From IMG/VR virus record IMGVR_UViG_2778261506_000010: a DNA stretch of 18,333 nucleotides; one strand, given 5' to 3'. The translations under genes were made by a program, and so were the position numbers. Positions 2,069 through 18,333 of this stretch are shown here, piece by piece. The stretch's first letter is position 1, and each line of letters opens with the position of its first letter. The notes beneath the pieces are model-generated. The model had not been told where the DNA came from. It worked only from the letters and a program-made list of their open reading frames with translations, and made no database searches. The DNA is from a virus (Duplodnaviria > Heunggongvirae > Uroviricota > Caudoviricetes).

Positions 2069-3544
2069 TTGAAAGAATATTTAGATATGAATACATCTCA
2101 TGTAAGAGTTGTTACTCATATGTGTGGGTTCCTGGTTTGGCTCTATAGTCTTTCAATGTTGCCACCAATGGTTGTAGCATTGTTTTATAAAGAAAAAAGC
2201 CTGTTCGTTTTCTTTATAACTTTCGTTATATTTTTTTGCATTGGTGGCGGAGCGTGGTATACAACTAAGAAATCTGGCATTCAATTACGTACCCGTGATG
2301 GGTTTATTATAATTGTAATGTTTTGGATTTTGTTTTCTGTTATTAGTGCATTCCCTTTATGGATTGACTCAGAACTTAATTTAACGTTCATTGATGCTCT
2401 GTTTGAAGGGGTTTCTGGAATAACAACAACAGGAGCAACTGTAATTGATGATGTTAGTTCATTACCTCGGGCATATTTGTACTATCGGTCACAGTTAAAT
2501 TTTATAGGTGGTTTAGGAGTTATTGTTCTGGCGGTTGCTGTATTGCCATTATTGGGTATTGGTGGTACAAAGCTTTATCAGTCAGAAATGCCGGGGCCAT
2601 TTAAGGATGACAAACTCACTCCCCGCCTGGCCGATACGTCACGGACACTGTGGATAACTTATTCTTTATTAGGTATTGCTTGTATTGTCTGTTATAGACT
2701 TGCAGGAATGCCTTTGTTTGATGCTATTTGTCACGGGATTTCCACAGTTTCGCTTGGTGGTTTCTCAACTCATAGCGAGAGTATCGGATATTTTAATAAC
2801 TATTTGGTTGAGCTGGTGGCTGGTTCTTTTTCCCTGCTATCGGCTTTCAACTTCACTCTTTGGTATATTGTTATTAGCAGGAAAACGATAAAACCTTTAA
2901 TCAGAGATATTGAACTTCGTTTCTTTCTGTTAATAGCCTTAGGGGTGATCATTGTTACCTCTTTCCAGGTCTGGCATATAGGTATGTATGACTTGCATGG
3001 AAGTTTTATTCATTCGTTTTTTCTTGCCAGCTCCATGCTCACTGATAATGGTTTAGCTACGCAGGATTATGCAAACTGGCCCACGCACACGATAGTGTTT
3101 TTGCTGTCGTCAAGTTTCTTTGGGGGATGTATAGGTTCAACTTGTGGTGGAATTAAGTCACTTCGATTTCTTATACTTTTCAAACAAAGCAAACACGAGA
3201 TAAATCAGCTTTCTCATCCCAGAGCGTTGTTGAGTGTAAATGTAGGAGGGAAGATAGTTACAGATCGTGTAATGAGGTCTGTATGGAGTTTCTTTTTTCT
3301 TTATACTCTCTTCACGGTGTTTTTTATACTGGTGTTAAATGGTATGGGATATGATTTTCTTACATCATTTGCAACAGTGGCTGCATGTATTAATAATATG
3401 GGATTAGGTTTTGGGGCTACTGCATCGTCATTCGGAGTGCTTAATGACATTGCAAAATATTTAATGTGCATAGCTATGATTCTTGGTCGCCTTGAAATTT
3501 ATCCTGTTATTATATTGTTTTCAGGTTTTTTTTGGCGCTCCTAA
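2069..3544 (+). CDS. trkG: TrkH/TrkG-family potassium uptake membrane protein (Rac prophage trkG-like)
   Basis: 491-aa polytopic membrane protein with TrkH-family hallmarks (...FEGVSGITTTGATV..., ...LPLLGIGGTKLYQSEMPGPFKDDKLTPR..., ...GGCIGSTCGGIKSLRFLILFKQ..., ...ILGRLEIYPVIILF...). Very AT-rich compared with flanking phage genes. Start is TTG 2069 (SD-like AAGGTGG 6 nt upstream) or ATG 2087 (MNTSHVRVV...). Confidence 0.9.
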   Translation: MKEYLDMNTSHVRVVTHMCGFLVWLYSLSMLPPMVVALFYKEKSLFVFFITFVIFFCIGGGAWYTTKKSGIQLRTRDGFIIIVMFWILFSVISAFPLWIDSELNLTFIDALFEGVSGITTTGATVIDDVSSLPRAYLYYRSQLNFIGGLGVIVLAVAVLPLLGIGGTKLYQSEMPGPFKDDKLTPRLADTSRTLWITYSLLGIACIVCYRLAGMPLFDAICHGISTVSLGGFSTHSESIGYFNNYLVELVAGSFSLLSAFNFTLWYIVISRKTIKPLIRDIELRFFLLIALGVIIVTSFQVWHIGMYDLHGSFIHSFFLASSMLTDNGLATQDYANWPTHTIVFLLSSSFFGGCIGSTCGGIKSLRFLILFKQSKHEINQLSHPRALLSVNVGGKIVTDRVMRSVWSFFFLYTLFTVFFILVLNGMGYDFLTSFATVAACINNMGLGFGATASSFGVLNDIAKYLMCIAMILGRLEIYPVIILFSGFFWRS

Positions 3545-3681: not shown

Positions 3682-4470
3682 ATGAGCGAGAAATTAAAGA
3701 TAGTCTATCGCCCATTACAAGAATTGTCACCGTATGCGCACAACGCCAGGACGCACAGTACTGAGCAGGTGGCACAACTGGTAGAAAGTATTAAGCAATT
3801 CGGCTGGACTAATCCGGTGCTGATTGACGAAAAGGGCGAAATTATTGCGGGTCACGGTCGTGTTATGGCGGCTGAAATGCTCAAAATGGATTCTGTTCCG
3901 GTCATTGTTCTGTCTGGCCTGACGGATGAGCAGAAAAAGGCGTACCGCCTGGCAGATAATCGCCTACCGATGAATGCTGGCTGGGATGAAGATCTGTTGC
4001 GGATGGAGCTGTCGGACCTAATCAATGCTGATTTTGATGTCTCCCTGACAGGCTTCGGCCCGACAGAAATTGATGAACTGTTGACGGATGTTTTGCCCGG
4101 TACAGGAAATAAGGAGGAGCCGTATACGACGAAAATTGATACGCCTGTTTATGAGCCGTCGGGCGGTAAACCGGATATCAGTGAACTGTACGACGATACG
4201 AAAACTCAGGAGCTGATCAGCCGGATACGTTCGGCGTCCCTTGAGCCTGATATTGAGAAATTCCTCCTGTGTGCGGCAGAACGTCACACGGTGTTTAATT
4301 TCAGCAGAATTGCGGACTATTACGCTCATGCCCCCGCTGAAATTCAGTGCCTTTTCGAGGAGTCGGCGCTGGTGATCATTGATTATCAGCAGGCTATTGA
4401 AAATGGATTTGTCCGAATGACGCAGCGCATGGTGGCGATCATGCATAGCGGGGAGGAGGAATATGCGTGA
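3682..4470 (+). CDS. ParB-like nuclease (ParB N-terminal/sulfiredoxin-like) domain protein, ynaK-like
   Basis: 262-aa ORF. N-terminal region resembles the ParB N-domain (...YRPLQELSPYAHNARTHSTEQVAQLVESIKQFGWTNPVLIDEKGEIIAGHGRVMAA...). C-terminal half is acidic with no obvious known domain. Confidence 0.7.
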   Translation: MSEKLKIVYRPLQELSPYAHNARTHSTEQVAQLVESIKQFGWTNPVLIDEKGEIIAGHGRVMAAEMLKMDSVPVIVLSGLTDEQKKAYRLADNRLPMNAGWDEDLLRMELSDLINADFDVSLTGFGPTEIDELLTDVLPGTGNKEEPYTTKIDTPVYEPSGGKPDISELYDDTKTQELISRIRSASLEPDIEKFLLCAAERHTVFNFSRIADYYAHAPAEIQCLFEESALVIIDYQQAIENGFVRMTQRMVAIMHSGEEEYA

Positions 4471-5326
4471 TGATTTTTGCGCCTTTATTCTGACTCACGG
4501 GCGACCGGACAAAGTTCTGACTTACCGGACGTTGCGTCGTGCTGGCTATACCGGGAAAATTTTTATCGTTGTTGATGATGAAGATAAGACACGGCATCAG
4601 TACATGGCTGAATTTGGTGAACAGGTGCTGGTATTTTCCAAAGCAGATATTGCCAGTCGTTTTGACGAAGCCGATAATTTTGGTGACCGCCGCTCAATTT
4701 TTTACGCCCGTAATGCCTGTTTCGACCTGGCAAAACTGGTCGGGTGTAAATACTTCATTCAGCTCGATGATGATTATCACGAGTTCCAGTTTCGGGTGGA
4801 TCGCAACTATGACCAGGCCTATTTCCCGATAAGGAAACTGGATGCGATCCTTTCTGAAATGCTGGCGTATTACGAATCAATACCCGCGCTTTCCATCGCT
4901 ATGTCGCAGGGCGGGGATTTTCTTGGTGACAATGGCGGCCATGCTTCGTGGGTGAAACGCAAGGCAATGAACAGCTTTATCTGTTCGGTTGATCGACCGT
5001 TCTCATTCATGGGGCGCATTAACGAGGATGTGAATACGTACACGAATCTCGGTCGCCGTGGTGAATTGTTTATGACGATCGGTGCTGTCCAGTTAGGGCA
5101 GAAACAGACGCAGAAAAACAGCGGCGGAATGACCGAGCTGTATCTGGATTCCGGGACCTACGTTAAAAGTTTTTATTCCGTCATGTATGCGCCGTCGTGC
5201 GTAAAAATCTCACTGATGGGCGCCAGCCATAAACGCATTCACCATCAGGTCACCTGGAACAACGCTGCAGTAAAAATCCTTCACGAAAAATACAGGAAGA
5301 AGACACCCTGCATATTAATGGGGTGA
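4463..5326 (+). CDS. hypothetical protein, GT-A-fold (family 2-like) putative glycosyltransferase, ydaY-like
   Basis: 287-aa ORF with SD GGAGGAGG 5 nt upstream; start overlaps the ParB-like stop (ATGCGTGA), indicating translational coupling. Motif layout resembles GT2 enzymes: FILTHGRPD (cf. IPTYNRP), IFIVVDDED (cf. IVVDDGS), FYARNACFDLAKLVGCKYFIQLDDDY (DxD region). No obvious TM helices. Confidence 0.75.
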   Translation: MRDDFCAFILTHGRPDKVLTYRTLRRAGYTGKIFIVVDDEDKTRHQYMAEFGEQVLVFSKADIASRFDEADNFGDRRSIFYARNACFDLAKLVGCKYFIQLDDDYHEFQFRVDRNYDQAYFPIRKLDAILSEMLAYYESIPALSIAMSQGGDFLGDNGGHASWVKRKAMNSFICSVDRPFSFMGRINEDVNTYTNLGRRGELFMTIGAVQLGQKQTQKNSGGMTELYLDSGTYVKSFYSVMYAPSCVKISLMGASHKRIHHQVTWNNAAVKILHEKYRKKTPCILMG

Positions 5327-5584: not shown

Positions 5585-6679
5585 ATGAGCAGACCGGACT
5601 GGGGGGCGTTGCAGCAGGAGTATATTGCTGAATACACCCGCTCCGGTATATCTCCGGTGGCATGGTGTGAAGCAAGGGGACTGAATTACGCAACAGCCCG
5701 TCGTTACATCAAAAAACCTCCGAAAAATGCGCAGACAGAAATGCGCAAAACTGCGCAAAAAAGTGCGCAGAAAAAATCTGCGCAGACTGCACAAAAGCGG
5801 AACGGAAAATCTCAGGAAAAAAAGCCAGTATCCGATGCGTACCTGAATGAGGGCGATGCGGAAGAAATTTCGTTCTGTCCCGATGAATTCGGCGTTTCTG
5901 ACCAGCAGGCGAAATTCGCAATGCTGGTTGCCCAGGGGAAAAAACTCGTTGAGGCATATCGCCTGGCAGGATACGAGTCAGAGGGGAATGCGGCCTACGT
6001 AACCGCCAGCCAGCTCCTAAGAAATCCTAAGGTTTTTCGTGCTATCAGCTACTTCCGCAATCAGTACCAGAAACGCTATACCGCAGACCTGGATTTACTG
6101 GTGAGTCAGTTGATGGCCATTGTCCAGGCCGACCCCAATCAGTTGGCACAATTTCGCCGTGTTAACTGCCGTTATTGCTGGGGCGAGAATCATCACTACC
6201 AGTGGCGCGATATAGCAGAATTCGATAAGGCAGCGGCGCAGGCCTCCAGAGATGGCAAACCCGAGCCGGAATATGGTGGCCTTGGCTTTGTTGATAACGC
6301 CATACCCAATCCGGACTGCCCGAAGTGCTGCGGTGAGGGAACGGGGCAGCTTTATATGGCTGATACCACTCTGCTTGATGGGGATGCGCGGCAATTATAT
6401 GCAGGGGCAAAGCTCGGAAAATTTGGTGTTGAGATCCTGCTGGAGGATAAGGCTGCCGCCCGGCGTGAATTGTTGCGTTTGCTTGCTGCTGGCGGGGCTT
6501 TATGTGCAGATAAGCGGCTACAGGAACTGGAAATTGAACGGCGCAGAATGGAAAACCAGAAGCTGCGCAAAGAGATCGAAACGGTGGAGGATAATGAACA
6601 TCCCCAACCTGTTGCGATCAATATTAATGTGGTTGATGCCAGAGTAAGGAGTGATGAAGATGATCTCTCCGACGCTTAA
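5585..6679 (+). CDS. terminase small subunit (Terminase_2-like core with N-terminal HTH, Cys4 zinc ribbon and C-terminal coiled coil)
   Basis: 364-aa ORF immediately upstream of the large terminase. Motif ...QQAKFAMLVAQGKKLVEAYRLAGYESEGNAAYVTASQLLRNPKVFRAI... matches the TerS family pattern. CxxC...CxxCC at 6167-6331. Confidence 0.7.
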   Translation: MSRPDWGALQQEYIAEYTRSGISPVAWCEARGLNYATARRYIKKPPKNAQTEMRKTAQKSAQKKSAQTAQKRNGKSQEKKPVSDAYLNEGDAEEISFCPDEFGVSDQQAKFAMLVAQGKKLVEAYRLAGYESEGNAAYVTASQLLRNPKVFRAISYFRNQYQKRYTADLDLLVSQLMAIVQADPNQLAQFRRVNCRYCWGENHHYQWRDIAEFDKAAAQASRDGKPEPEYGGLGFVDNAIPNPDCPKCCGEGTGQLYMADTTLLDGDARQLYAGAKLGKFGVEILLEDKAAARRELLRLLAAGGALCADKRLQELEIERRRMENQKLRKEIETVEDNEHPQPVAININVVDARVRSDEDDLSDA

Positions 6680-7961
6680 TGTGCCTCAGGCGCGATTTCT
6701 TTCAATGCCCCACAAATTTAAAGCCTATGTCGCTGGTTTTGGCTCGGGTAAAACATGGATTGGGTGTGGTGGCATATGCAAGGGGATTTGGGAACATCCT
6801 GGTATAAATCAGGGATATTTTGCGCCAACGTATCCCCAAATTCGCGATATTTTTTACCCTACAGTGGAAGAAGTTGCTGCTGACTGGGGATTGAATGTAA
6901 AAATTAATGAGGGAAATAAAGAGGTTCATTTTTATTACGGACGTCAGTATCGGGGAACCACTATCTGCAGATCGATGGAGAAGCCGCAAACGATCGTCGG
7001 TTTCAAAATTGGTAATGCGCTGGTGGATGAACTGGACATTTTGCCGAAGGAAAAAGCCAGAACAGCGTGGCGCAAGATAATTGCGCGTATGCGTTATAAG
7101 GTTGATGGACTTCGCAACGGTATTGACGTTACAACCACGCCGGAAGGATTCAAATTTGTCTACGAGCAGTTTGTTAAAGCCGTGCGTGAAAAAACAGAGC
7201 TGGCCTCACTGTATGGTCTGGTGCAGGCATCTACTTTCGATAATGAAAAGAACCTGCCAGCAGATTACATTCCTTCGCTTCTTGAGTCATACCCTCCAGA
7301 GCTGATTAAAGCCTATCTTCGAGGACAGTTTACTAACCTGACAAGTGGTACTGTTTACCATCAGTTTGACCGGAAACTGAATAATTGCGAAGAAGTGGAG
7401 CAGCCAGGGGAGCCGATTTATATTGGGATGGATTTTAACGTTGGAAAGATGGCGGGGGTCGTCCATGTACTGCGTTTGGGGCTTCCATGTGCGGTAACTG
7501 AAATCATCAATGCCTACGATACACCGGATATGATCCGCATCATTAAAGAACGCTTCTGGCTGTATGACGGGAATGATTACCGGAAAGTGAGGGAGATTTA
7601 TATTTATCCAGATGCTTCCGGAGATTCCAGAAAATCAAGTAACGCAAGTACGACGGATATAGCCCAGCTTAAGCAGGCTGGTTTTAACGTTGTGGTGAAC
7701 AGCTCGAACCCGCCAGTAAAAGATCGCGTTAACTCAATGAATGCAATGTTCTGCAATGCCAATGGCGAACGTCGCTATAAAGTTAATGTGAAGCGTTGTC
7801 CGGTATATGCCGAATCTCTGGAGCAACAGGTCTGGGATGATAAGGGGGAGCCTGATAAAAAATCAGGCAACGATCACCCGAATGATGCCGGAGGCTATTT
7901 CATCGTTAAGCAATTCCCTATTATCAAACCGACCGGAAGAGTCACATCACTTCGGATTTAA
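6660..7961 (+). CDS. terminase large subunit (ATPase/nuclease)
   Basis: Walker A-like motif AGFGSGKTW near the N-terminus; acidic nuclease-like C-terminal motifs (IYIGMDFN..., ...GNDHPNDAGGY). SD AAGGA at 6646-6650 favours ATG 6660; the track start 6651 is GTG. Overlaps the end of the small subunit gene. Confidence 0.85.
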   Translation: MISPTLNVPQARFLSMPHKFKAYVAGFGSGKTWIGCGGICKGIWEHPGINQGYFAPTYPQIRDIFYPTVEEVAADWGLNVKINEGNKEVHFYYGRQYRGTTICRSMEKPQTIVGFKIGNALVDELDILPKEKARTAWRKIIARMRYKVDGLRNGIDVTTTPEGFKFVYEQFVKAVREKTELASLYGLVQASTFDNEKNLPADYIPSLLESYPPELIKAYLRGQFTNLTSGTVYHQFDRKLNNCEEVEQPGEPIYIGMDFNVGKMAGVVHVLRLGLPCAVTEIINAYDTPDMIRIIKERFWLYDGNDYRKVREIYIYPDASGDSRKSSNASTTDIAQLKQAGFNVVVNSSNPPVKDRVNSMNAMFCNANGERRYKVNVKRCPVYAESLEQQVWDDKGEPDKKSGNDHPNDAGGYFIVKQFPIIKPTGRVTSLRI

Positions 7962-14370: not shown

Positions 14371-15333
14371 GTGAGTTCAGGTGCAAAGGTTATCTCGGCA
14401 TTTATCCGGGAGACAGTTGCAGGCACTACGCCAGCAAGTGGTGACTGGAGTTTATTAAAACGCACAAGCTGGGGAGTAAAACCCACCCAGAATAAAGGCG
14501 AAAATAATGAGATTGGTGGCTCCCGGATGGCTCAGGGGGCGACGCCTGGCACTGTGGATGTCGGCGGTGATGTTGGTACCAAATTTCGCTGGGGTCAACA
14601 TGATGATTTTCTTGCATCCTGTTTCGGCGCGGAATGGTCAGGCGATTCTCTGACAATGGGGAATGAGCGAATAACATTTTCTCTGGCGACCTATGCGTCC
14701 GATGTCGGAATTGCCTCTGTCGTCAGAGGAGCGCAGGTTGGCTCATGGAAAATGCAGATCCCTAACGACGGCGATATTACAGCGACCGTAACCTTTGCCG
14801 GGCTGGGCTGGGAATCAAAGGCCGATGATACGAATTTTATCAAAGGCGAACCTGTGGATAGTGCAGGAAAGTTACGCTATTCGTTTAAGGCGGTTTCAGC
14901 AGTAAGCCTGAATGGTGTTGCCGGAGGTAACGGTTTTTGTATCGACAGTTTTGATATTCAGTTCGATAACAAACTCCAGACACAGCGTTGTATCGGGACT
15001 GGCTCGCCTTATGCAGGAGCAAATATTCCGACTACTTTTACACCGTCCGGTACGGTGACGCTTTCATGGTCTAAAGCCGCGTGGGAAATCTGGAGTAAAA
15101 CACTGACTGGAGAAACAGTTCCGTTCAGCTTCACGCTTTCGAATGGAGAGGGGGCATACACTTTCAGTTTCCCGAAGGTTCAGGTGTCAGGTGAATGGCC
15201 TGATGGGGGTAATACTGACATTATCCAGGTTCAATTGAGCATTACCGCAGCAGATGAAGCACCTACGATAACCAGAAAAAAATGCTCCCCGACTGCCGTG
15301 ATCGCAAAAGCCAGTGCTGATGCGATTAGTTGA
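14371..15333 (+). CDS. major tail (tube) protein
   Basis: Strong SD AGGAGG 5-6 nt upstream of GTG 14371. 320-aa Ser/Thr/Gly-rich product in the position upstream of the G/GT chaperone pair. Confidence 0.7.
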   Translation: MSSGAKVISAFIRETVAGTTPASGDWSLLKRTSWGVKPTQNKGENNEIGGSRMAQGATPGTVDVGGDVGTKFRWGQHDDFLASCFGAEWSGDSLTMGNERITFSLATYASDVGIASVVRGAQVGSWKMQIPNDGDITATVTFAGLGWESKADDTNFIKGEPVDSAGKLRYSFKAVSAVSLNGVAGGNGFCIDSFDIQFDNKLQTQRCIGTGSPYAGANIPTTFTPSGTVTLSWSKAAWEIWSKTLTGETVPFSFTLSNGEGAYTFSFPKVQVSGEWPDGGNTDIIQVQLSITAADEAPTITRKKCSPTAVIAKASADAIS

Positions 15334-15381: not shown

Positions 15382-15843
15382 ATGAGGTTATGGATGTTTA
15401 TTCTTAATCAGAAAATTATCATCGGTGGAGAACGCTGGTTTACGCCAATGAAGGACTTAAAACCTGTAGACGGGTTAAAACTGTTGGTGGCAAGCAGCGA
15501 TAACGATCAGTATCGCTCCCGTAATGCATTAATCCGTCGTCACATTGAGAAAATGGATGCCAGTTTGCACGTCGGAACGAAGGAGTTTGATATTTCAAAG
15601 GTTTCCGAGGTAGATTCTGTTGATGATTTACTCATTGATAATGCTGCTCGTTATCTGCTGAAAGACTGGAAAGGGGTTGGTGAACTGGTTAATGGTGCTG
15701 AGGTTGCACTGGAATATACGCCAGAACGAGGGATCGCGCTGCTTAAGCAGAATCCAGAGTTGTACTGGCAGATCCTTGCAGAAGCAGCCAGCATCGCCCA
15801 GGGTAAAGAGCAGCAGAAGCAGGATACGATAAAAAAGCCATAG
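15382..15843 (+). CDS. tail assembly chaperone (lambda gpG-like)
   Basis: 153-aa acidic ORF directly upstream of the tape measure gene, ending ...IKKP* with slippery heptamer A AAA AAG at 15831-15837. Alternative starts at 15394 and 15448. Confidence 0.7.
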   Translation: MRLWMFILNQKIIIGGERWFTPMKDLKPVDGLKLLVASSDNDQYRSRNALIRRHIEKMDASLHVGTKEFDISKVSEVDSVDDLLIDNAARYLLKDWKGVGELVNGAEVALEYTPERGIALLKQNPELYWQILAEAASIAQGKEQQKQDTIKKP

Positions 15844-16151
15844 CCGCCCAGCGGTGGTTATCGGAGTTCGGGGGAGAAAGGGGGGAAAAGGCAAGATGGA
15901 AGCGAGAAAAACTCAGGTTGCCACCGATACCGGAACCAGAAATAGACCCGGTGCTTAAGGAATTGTTGTACGCCTATTCGGTAATATCCCGTGCCCGACG
16001 TTATGCTGGAATGACCGGGGTGCCTTTGCCTTTATCTCTGACAGAGATAAATGAATATTTAGCCACTCATCCGGTATTGATTGAGCGCGATGAATTTGAA
16101 GCAGTGATCTTTGCACTGGATGACCAGTATTTTCAGGAGCAGTGTGTGTAG
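15382..16151 (+). CDS. tail assembly chaperone GT-like fusion made by programmed -1 ribosomal frameshift
   Basis: The -1 frame is open from 15807 to TAG 16149-16151, overlapping the G frame by 37 nt that include the slippery site. The downstream ORF has no ATG (track start is TTG 15918), as expected for a frameshift-only product. Confidence 0.65.
15831..15837 (+). other. programmed -1 frameshift slippery heptamer A AAA AAG
   Basis: Heptamer is in the correct zero-frame phasing (A|AAA|AAG, codons Lys-Lys) 4 nt before the G stop; identical to the classical dnaX / lambda G-T type slip site. Confidence 0.7.
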
Positions 16152-16271
16152 TTGTTAATTACGTACACTCTGTTACAGAGATGTGATGGTGTCTTTAATT
16201 AAATCGATGATGCTCCTGGAGAAAAGCATTGCGTGGCCTCGTAATCGCTATATCTACTATTATGTCGCCTG

Positions 16272-16300
16272 AAACCCACTTCGCGGTGGGTTTTTTGTTG
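16272..16300 (+). terminator. intrinsic terminator in the 165-bp spacer between GT and tape measure genes
   Basis: 8-bp stem AAACCCAC / GTGGGTTT with 6-nt loop TTCGCG, followed by a T-run (TTTTTTGTTG). Confidence 0.6.
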
Positions 16301-16316
16301 TCAGGAGTTTTAATAA

Positions 16317-18233
16317 ATGGCAGAGCAAACCTCGCGTCTCGCAATAATTATTGATAGCACTGGAGCGAAAAATAATGCTGACAATCTGACCTCCTCATTA
16401 GTCAAAATGACGCAGGCTGGGGAAACTGCTGCAAATAGCGCAGGGAAAGTGACTAAGGCAACAGAAGATGAGAAGAACGCGCTCGCAAAATTAAAAGCAG
16501 CTATTGATCCAGTTGGTGCCGCAATTGATACTGTCGGTCGACGCTATTCTGAATTAAAGAAATTTTTCGATAAAGGGCTTATTGATAAAGAAGAATATGA
16601 ATTTCTTGTCCGTAAACTTAATGAAACCACAGAGGAATTGAGCGGGGTTGCGCAAGCGCAGAGAGAAGCCGAGAAGGCCGGAAAACTTGCTGCCGCCCAG
16701 CAGGAAGCGCAGGCTCAGGCCTTTCAAAGAATGCTGGACAAGATCGACCCTCTGGCTGCGGCGCTAAGAAATCTTGAACAACAGCATGATGAACTTAATG
16801 CTGCGTTTGCATCCGGGAAAATAAATGGTTCTCAGTTTGAGAATTATAGCCGAAAAATACAGGAAACACGGCGAGAGCTTACCGGAGAGGCTCAGGCAGA
16901 GCGAGAAGCAGCAAAAGCGCATGATGAACAGGTTGTTGCTTTGCAACGTCTGATTGCTCAACTTGATCCTGTCGGAACTGCTTTTAATCGTCTGGTAGAA
17001 CAACAGAAACAGCTCAATGAAGCAAAAGCTAAGGGGATGCTTTCTCCTGAAATGTATGAGGAGCTTTCTGGAAAACTTCGTGCTATGCGGAGTGAGCTTG
17101 AGGTTACTCAATCACAATTAAGCAAAACCGGAATGTCGGCAAAACAAACGGCTTTTGCTATGCGCATGTTGCCTGCACAAATGACGGATATTGTTGTTGG
17201 GTTGTCCACTGGTCAGTCGCCATTTATGGTGTTAATGCAGCAGGGCGGCCAGCTAAAAGATATGTTCGGTGGGATTGGCCCGGCGATCAAAGGTGTAGGT
17301 TCTTATGTGCTGGGATTAATTAATCCTTTTACCCTGGCCGCAGCAGCCGTTGGGGTCTTAGGACTGGCTTACTATAAAGGCTCTCAGGAGCAGGACGAAT
17401 TTAATAAATCTCTTATTCTTACCGGAAATCAGTTGGGGACAACCAGCGGGCAATTGGGCGATATAGCTCAACGTGCCGGGAATGCGGCTGATTCGACAAC
17501 TGGTGCTGCGGCGGCAGTATTAAATCAGCTTGTGCGTTCGGGAAAGGTAGCGAGCAGTTCGCTGGAGCAAGTGACGACAGCGATAGTAAAAACGAGCGAA
17601 GTAACAGGAATATCAACCGAACAACTGGTTAATGACTTCAATGAAATTGCAAAGGATCCTGTCAGTGCCATATCAAAACTTAATGATCAGTACCATTTTC
17701 TGACACTTGCGACTTATAACCAGATTAAGGCGCTACAGGATGAAGGGAACCAGCAGGAGGCCGCCCGCATTGCGACAGAAGAATACTCATCCTCAATGAT
17801 CCAGCGCACCAACCAGATTAAAGAAAATCTTGGTTATCTTGAGACTGCATGGAAAGCTGTCGCAGACTCCGCAAAATGGGCATGGGATTCCATGCTGGAT
17901 ATTGGCCGTGAGGCCTCCCTTGATCAAAAAATCTCAGATGTTCTCCGTCAAATTGATGAAATAGAAAAAAATACCCGACCCGGAGTTTTCGGGTTAGGTG
18001 GCATTGGAGATGGCGGAGCTCAAAATAAAAGGCTGGCACGATTAAAGCAGCAATTGGGCGTACTTCAAGCAGAAAAAATTGCTCAGGACGTACTAAATTC
18101 ATCAATAAACGATTACAACAAGCGACAACAGGAAGGAATTGAACTCAGACAGAGAGCAGATGCCTTTTCAAAACAATATCAGACCCGGGAGCAGCAGAGA
18201 GCTAGGGAAGGTGCGAACAAGTTCCTGATATGA
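16317..18233 (+). CDS. tail tape measure protein (lambda gpH-like), N-terminal ~630 codons; 3' part interrupted by an IS5-family insertion
   Basis: SD AGGAG 9 nt upstream of ATG 16317. Central block ...[39 protein letters not shown]...[22 protein letters not shown]... matches lambda H from memory. From 18206 the frame runs into IS sequence; the last ~9 codons (REGANKFLI) and the stop at 18231-18233 are IS-derived. Confidence 0.75.
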
Positions 18234-18333
18234 GATCATCATATTCATACGGAGCGCATCCCAGAGGGACATCATGAGCCATCAACTCACCTTCGCCGAT
18301 AGTGAATTCAGCACTAAGCGCCGTCAGACCCGA
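18206..18333 (+). mobile_element. IS5-family insertion sequence, left end (continues beyond window)
   Basis: Terminal inverted repeat GGAAGGTGCGAACAAG at 18206-18221, immediately preceded by CTAG (18202-18205), which fits the IS5 YTAR target. Downstream sequence matches the transposase-proximal end of IS5 from memory. Confidence 0.85.
18274..18333 (+). CDS. insH: IS5-family transposase (InsH-like), first 20 codons; 3' end beyond window
   Basis: ATG 18274; translation [20 protein letters not shown] is nearly identical to the IS5 InsH N-terminus as recalled ([20 protein letters not shown]...). Confidence 0.85.
   Translation, partial: [20 protein letters not shown]

Follow-up and report, generated by a model that had tools for sequence, protein, structure and literature searches.

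Why does the tape measure protein (TMP) gene of this prophage run, at position 18206, into the end of an insertion sequence (IS), and why does the 18,333-nt stretch of DNA analysed here (virus record IMGVR_UViG_2778261506_000010, hereafter the window) stop shortly afterwards? Our comparisons indicate that insertion of an ISKpn26/IS5Y copy into a CTAG of the TMP gene very probably explains the junction, the truncation of the gene and the end of the window alike; failure of the tail is what we infer from it.

The window covers the late region of a lambdoid prophage of E. coli, through to TMP. Its genes run from a holin, lysozyme and Rz lysis cassette through trkG, a gene for a ParB_N protein and a TAGT/GREB1-like gene to the small and large terminase, portal, MuF-like protein, scaffold and major capsid protein, and then through head-tail genes, tail terminator, tail tube and YdaY with its -1 frameshift partner to TMP. 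The preliminary description of this DNA had called the late operon otherwise intact, and the structural late ORFs other than TMP are indeed full length relative to those of relatives. Upstream of TMP the gene order fits the lambda gpH type, with the tail tube gene (14371–15333) followed by YdaY and the -1 frame ORF, while the genes 3’ of TMP (gpM/L/K/I/J homologues) are seen in relatives only. The YdaY ORF itself ends at 15843 and the -1 frame is open from 15807 to 16151, with an A_AAA_AAG slippery heptamer at 15831–15837, in the correct phase and 6 nt before the ydaY stop; from its sequence the region looks like a programmed frameshift of the lambda G/GT type of tail assembly chaperones.

Intact TMP orthologues are 3234 nt long (1077 aa) and share 99–100% DNA identity with the window gene (99.8–100% for the 5’ part at 16317–18205), and residues 1–629 of the window product are identical to those of the intact 1077-aa TMP of strain MB52. 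At the insertion site the intact orthologues read ...GAGAGCTAGTGAACTT... (the intact sequence spanning the site being GAGAGCTAGTGAACTTGC), and the window reads ...cagcagagagCTAG up to the junction and GGAAGGTGCGAACAAGttcctgatatga... beyond it, the insertion point lying after the second base of codon 630 (of 1077). The truncated product consists of 629 native TMP residues followed by nine that are IS-encoded, REGANKFLI. The preliminary description had considered that a native tape-measure stop might lie upstream of 18206, which would have spoken against its reading; there is none in the ORF, and the TGA that ends the frame belongs to the IS (Table 1). The conserved, membrane-associated central block that it placed before the break corresponds roughly to what we see, namely one hydrophobic segment (approximately aa 327–352) within the TMP_2 domain, upstream of the break. 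In the intact 1077-aa TMP three domains are recognised, TMP_2 (267–471), TMP_4 (671–748) and Tape_meas_lam_C (858–932); the window ORF has TMP_2 alone, the other two being lost beyond the break. The window ORF is a disrupted, not a functional, lambda gpH-like tape-measure member.

The same description had placed an IS5-family element in the TMP gene, with a CTAG in front of a perfect IS5-type terminal repeat at 18206 and a transposase start on the same strand. Each of these elements was borne out, and the IS could be assigned more closely. The last part of the window has the sequence ...CAGCAGAGAG-CTAG-GGAAGGTGCGAACAAG-TTCCTGATATGA..., and a search of the window for GGAAGGTGCGAAYAAG, allowing up to two mismatches, gave a single match, at the terminal repeat, where 0.02 would be expected by chance. 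Of the IS5-group repeat pattern GGAAGGTGCGAA(C/T)AAG, the left end is seen in the window and the right end, CTTATTCGCACCTTCC, in OW1E2 (see below). The CTAG is native to the TMP gene, because intact orthologues carry it at the same point. The 20 visible transposase residues are identical to the N-terminus of the 326-aa ISKpn26 transposase, full-length copies of which match DUF772 (PF05598) and DDE_Tnp_1 (PF01609).

Table 1. Features of the late-region end of the window.
Feature	Position	Strand	Remarks
YdaY tail-assembly chaperone and overlapping -1 frame ORF	15382–16151	+	Pfam Phage_YdaY (PF27119); directly upstream of TMP
Lambda gpH-like TMP gene, 5’ part	16317–18205	+	1889 nt: codons 1–629 and 2 nt of codon 630
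Truncated TMP ORF, 638 aa	16317–18233	+	Pfam TMP_2, E=5e-82, aa 267–471
CTAG target of the IS	18202–18205		TMP nt 1886–1889
Left 16-bp terminal inverted repeat, ISKpn26/IS5Y (GGAAGGTGCGAACAAG)	18206–18221	+	Perfect; same as K-12 IS5Y and IS5A left ends
ISKpn26/IS5Y stub, first 128 nt of the 1196-bp element	18206–18333	+	Ends with contig and window
Stop of the truncated TMP frame (TGA, inside the IS)	18231–18233	+	IS-encoded
IS transposase, first 20 codons	18274–18333	+	ATG at 18274; same strand as TMP

The identity of the element was judged on 128 of its 1196 nt, against references cut from finished genomes. Over this length the stub matches K-12 IS5Y at 127/128 positions (99.2%), as it does the 1196-bp elements of OW1E2, GPEC548 and ECCHD184 (127/128 each). 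Canonical IS5 of K-12 (IS5A/insH1) shares with the window IS the family, the organisation, the left 16-bp repeat and a similar length (1195 versus 1196 bp), but it is 85% identical to the 128-nt stub and, as a whole element, 91.5% identical to the ISKpn26/IS5Y form; the element is therefore the ISKpn26/IS5Y isoform and not IS5 proper. Plasmid records matching the stub as ISKpn26 copies number 4193 (best 99.2%), of which 3805 are at 99% or above. At 18249 the window has A where K-12 IS5Y and the compared full-length copies have C, and the best plasmid matches listed also carry one mismatch; the mismatch is either peculiar to this copy, as a private SNP, or an error close to where the contig stops.

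Draft contig NLVP01000070.1 (20,308 bp; GCA_002511785.1) agrees with the window at 100% identity across the 12,017 nt compared, the SNP at 18249 included, and NLVP01000070.1 ends 1 nt beyond the window end. In the public collection the exact 638-aa product occurs in 29 blocks and comes from many samples (24 contigs were read), and several other draft contigs with this product stop approximately 26–146 nt into the IS. The short-read contig from which the window comes breaks in this multi-copy repeat, which is why no more than 128 nt of the IS are present. Since the window ends at a contig end within such a repeat, and its stub carries a SNP absent from the best ISKpn26 matches listed (all 99.2%), one could suspect the junction to be a product of misassembly, with TMP joined to IS reads from elsewhere at a chimeric contig end. 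We consider this extremely improbable: the exact junction is present in four finished chromosomes, the truncated protein recurs across the collection blocks and contigs just mentioned, the break falls exactly at the IS terminal repeat and CTAG, as transposition predicts, and the contig has no break across the 2.2 kb of TMP sequence that the prophage types have in common.

The finished E. coli chromosomes with the identical left junction are those of OW1E2 (NZ_CP067245.1), GPEC548 (NZ_CM142809.1), FDAARGOS_1249 (NZ_CP069459.1) and ECCHD184 (NZ_CP033250.1); among species-representative genomes, where E. coli has a single representative, the exact 40-nt junction found no match. All four resemble the window over 400 nt spanning the junction (99.5–99.8% identical), in the CTAG, in the orientation of the IS and in the 638-aa truncated product, but their prophage backbone is approximately 1.2–1.8% diverged from that of the window upstream of 16016. 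The two that were checked at locus level have Rac at ttcA/uspF, whereas the window matches the ybhC-site lambdoid type. PGAP labels the parts in the junction genomes as a TMP pseudogene and an ‘IS5-like element ISKpn26 family transposase’.

What lies on the far side of the IS differs among these genomes. OW1E2 reads CTAG-IS(1196 bp)-CTAG-TGAACTTGC..., with the CTAG duplication read on both sides of the IS and CTTATTCGCACCTTCC as its right end, and continues with the remaining TMP and then the homologues of gpM/L/K/I/J; GPEC548 is arranged in the same way, as a simple 1196-bp insertion. In FDAARGOS_1249 an IS3 element interrupts the IS, beyond which lies a C-terminal fragment of TMP, the distal TMP being recut by another IS5-family element. 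In ECCHD184 the right end of the IS adjoins CTAA and then uspF-ompN-nifJ, the remaining prophage is deleted and there is no CTAG duplication. The preliminary description had left the TMP ‘truncated, or split’; the frame is cut at codon 630 of 1077, and both forms occur in nature, since the complete genomes that share the junction show both outcomes. Simple insertion looks like the primary event.

ECCHD184, with the identical left junction and without the distal prophage, also gives substance to another reading of the window, in which the IS bounds an IS-mediated deletion or inter-IS recombination, the distal TMP is gone with or without the downstream tail genes, and TMP is truncated and not split. 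Further IS-driven erosion in FDAARGOS_1249 and many deletions bounded by IS1, IS3 or IS5 in relatives of the prophage point the same way. At the same time, three of the four complete genomes that share the junction have TMP sequence beyond the IS, and on the left side the IS has the look of a clean insertion into a target that it prefers; we regard a deletion at this locus as unlikely. Simple insertion, in which the IS would be complete and followed by a second copy of CTAG and the remaining TMP, is what we would expect here with fair confidence. It would give a right junction of ...CTTATTCGCACCTTCC-CTAG-TGAACTTGCAAAACTGG, and CTTATTCGCACCTTCC followed by CTAGTGAACTTGCAAAACTGG would mean simple insertion, CTAG duplication and a split TMP.

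The preferred target of IS5 is YTAR, typically CTAG. CTAG occurs twice in the 3234-nt TMP gene (nt 1886 and 2143) and twice in the whole window, and the locus offers a clean example of ISKpn26/IS5Y targeting CTAG strictly. Among 5426 finished E. coli genomes, approximately 694 have the uninterrupted site, 4 have this insertion and 1 has an insertion in the neighbouring CTAG. E. coli X14-3 shows no difference from the window in the 6.3 kb compared, up to the insertion site of the window, but instead carries an IS5Y/IS5 hybrid element in the other CTAG of TMP (nt 2143), 257 bp downstream, with the CTAG duplicated. This element (6529–7725 of the extracted X14-3 stretch) is IS5Y/ISKpn26-like on its left and canonical IS5-like at its right end, with overall identities of 96% to IS5Y and 94.5% to IS5A, a pattern that suggests that IS5 isoforms recombined.

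The backbone of the window matches the ybhC-site prophage type, differing from MB52 by four SNPs in 18.2 kb and being 99.9–100% identical to 81EVA and X14-3; in all three strains the prophage copies adjoin ybhC (the lambda attachment region). In the junction-bearing complete genomes examined, by comparison, the junction lies in Rac at the ttcA-uspF locus. Together these observations would fit an import of the IS-bearing TMP segment from Rac at ttcA by homologous recombination, with no new insertion in this prophage. Such an exchange is feasible because positions 16017–18205 (2.2 kb) are identical in both backbones. However, SNP mapping showed these 2.2 kb to be identical in IS-bearing and intact alleles of both backbones, intact-TMP relatives included, so the left flank is silent on whether the insertion was independent or imported; and an independent hit at the same CTAG is equally plausible, because there are two CTAGs only and both have been hit in different strains. 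Import from Rac is thus a possible origin of the allele, one that we view with some doubt. With similar reserve we suggest that both TMP CTAGs are recurrent hot spots for ISKpn26/IS5Y and that the same CTAG was hit independently in ybhC-type and Rac prophages, the other CTAG being hit in a third lineage. If so, hits at CTAG are possibly favoured by disarming the tail of the prophage. That both TMP CTAGs are occupied, in different strains, is mildly notable, as is the same site having been hit, as may be the case, in two different prophages.

The textbook parallel is lomR::IS5Y in the cryptic Rac prophage of K-12 MG1655. There, too, the element is a 1196-bp IS5Y isoform (127/128 to the window stub), the late region is of the same type (trkG-ynaK-ydaY-TMP), and an IS inactivates a gene of the late/tail region. 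K-12 Rac differs from the window in that its IS lies in lomR and in the opposite orientation, its TMP (ynaA) is truncated by a deletion and not by an IS, and most of its head genes are gone. A second parallel comes from acrR of Klebsiella pneumoniae, in which ISKpn26, an IS5-family element of 1,196 bp that generates a 4-bp CTAG direct repeat, inserted at a CTAG target with duplication of the 4 bp and inactivated the gene; in one isolate the flank and the duplicate were lost secondarily (PMC8023600). The acrR case concerns a chromosomal regulator with a selectable drug-resistance phenotype, whereas in the window the IS lies in a structural gene of a prophage, where no selected phenotype is obvious.

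On the preferred explanation, an ISKpn26/IS5Y copy transposed into the CTAG at TMP nt 1886–1889, in the same orientation as the gene, and the resulting frame of 629 + 9 residues lacks the C-terminal 448 residues of TMP, with TMP_4 and the lambda-type C-terminal domain. In lambda, assembly of a tail of defined length requires the tape measure. A TMP that lacks its C-terminal part would, by analogy with lambda gpH, be expected to allow no tail assembly and hence to yield no infectious particle, and we can soundly infer, on the same analogy, that a split TMP gives a non-functional tail. The C-terminal TMP fragment might still be expressed; split tape measures are not known to complement.

The IS in TMP need not be the sole defect of the prophage, because close relatives often carry IS lesions in the early region. 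The early region of 81EVA is near-complete (from int and xis, via repressor and replication genes, up to Q), and those of MB52 and X14-3 have IS1/IS3-bounded deletions. More generally, relatives at the ybhC site show repeated erosion, through insertion of IS1, IS3 and IS5-family elements and through deletions bounded by an IS, for example loss of the early region or an IS in the holin gene. The copy in the window, with its disrupted TMP, should be classed as defective, or cryptic, with respect to virion production. It is a case of ordinary IS-mediated prophage decay, already known, with the same allele annotated by PGAP, and its importance goes little beyond annotation, as one more instance of the IS-driven erosion of lambdoid/Rac-type prophages.

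Several GenBank ‘phage complete genome’ records (ON032529.1, ON4705xx–ON4706xx) match the window. We considered records of this kind with an intact TMP as evidence of viable relatives and rejected them: they are prophage predictions, not virion genomes. The record of Salmonella phage SPF_0923 includes chromosomal sitABCD, uspF, ompN and nifJ, and the vB_EcoS-...R.. records stem from a paper on phages ‘located in’ the genomes of clinical isolates. Because ON032529.1 and ON4705xx–ON4706xx are predictions that include chromosomal genes, they are no evidence of viable virions.

The window has three further features in the region from the lysis genes to the small terminase. The trkG gene (2087–3544) lies in the interval between lysis cassette and terminase, exactly where K-12 Rac has it, with 99.3% identity to the K-12 region, although the backbone of the window matches a prophage of the ybhC locus (lambda att). 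In the interval from trkG to the small terminase (3682–5326), the ParB_N gene (262 aa) overlaps the TAGT/GREB1-like glycosyltransferase gene (PF20691, 287 aa). The protein of the latter ORF occurs in 605 collection blocks, and PGAP annotates the gene as ‘frameshifted; internal stop’ in the MB52 copy, which is near-identical; it may be what is left of a DNA-modification moron. K-12 ynaK is a stump of the ParB_N gene. Finally, the SNP at 1427, one of the four that separate the window from MB52, falls in the lysozyme gene, for which the window has an ORF of 165 aa (991–1488) and MB52 an annotated length of 438 nt, the MB52 gene probably having a premature stop.
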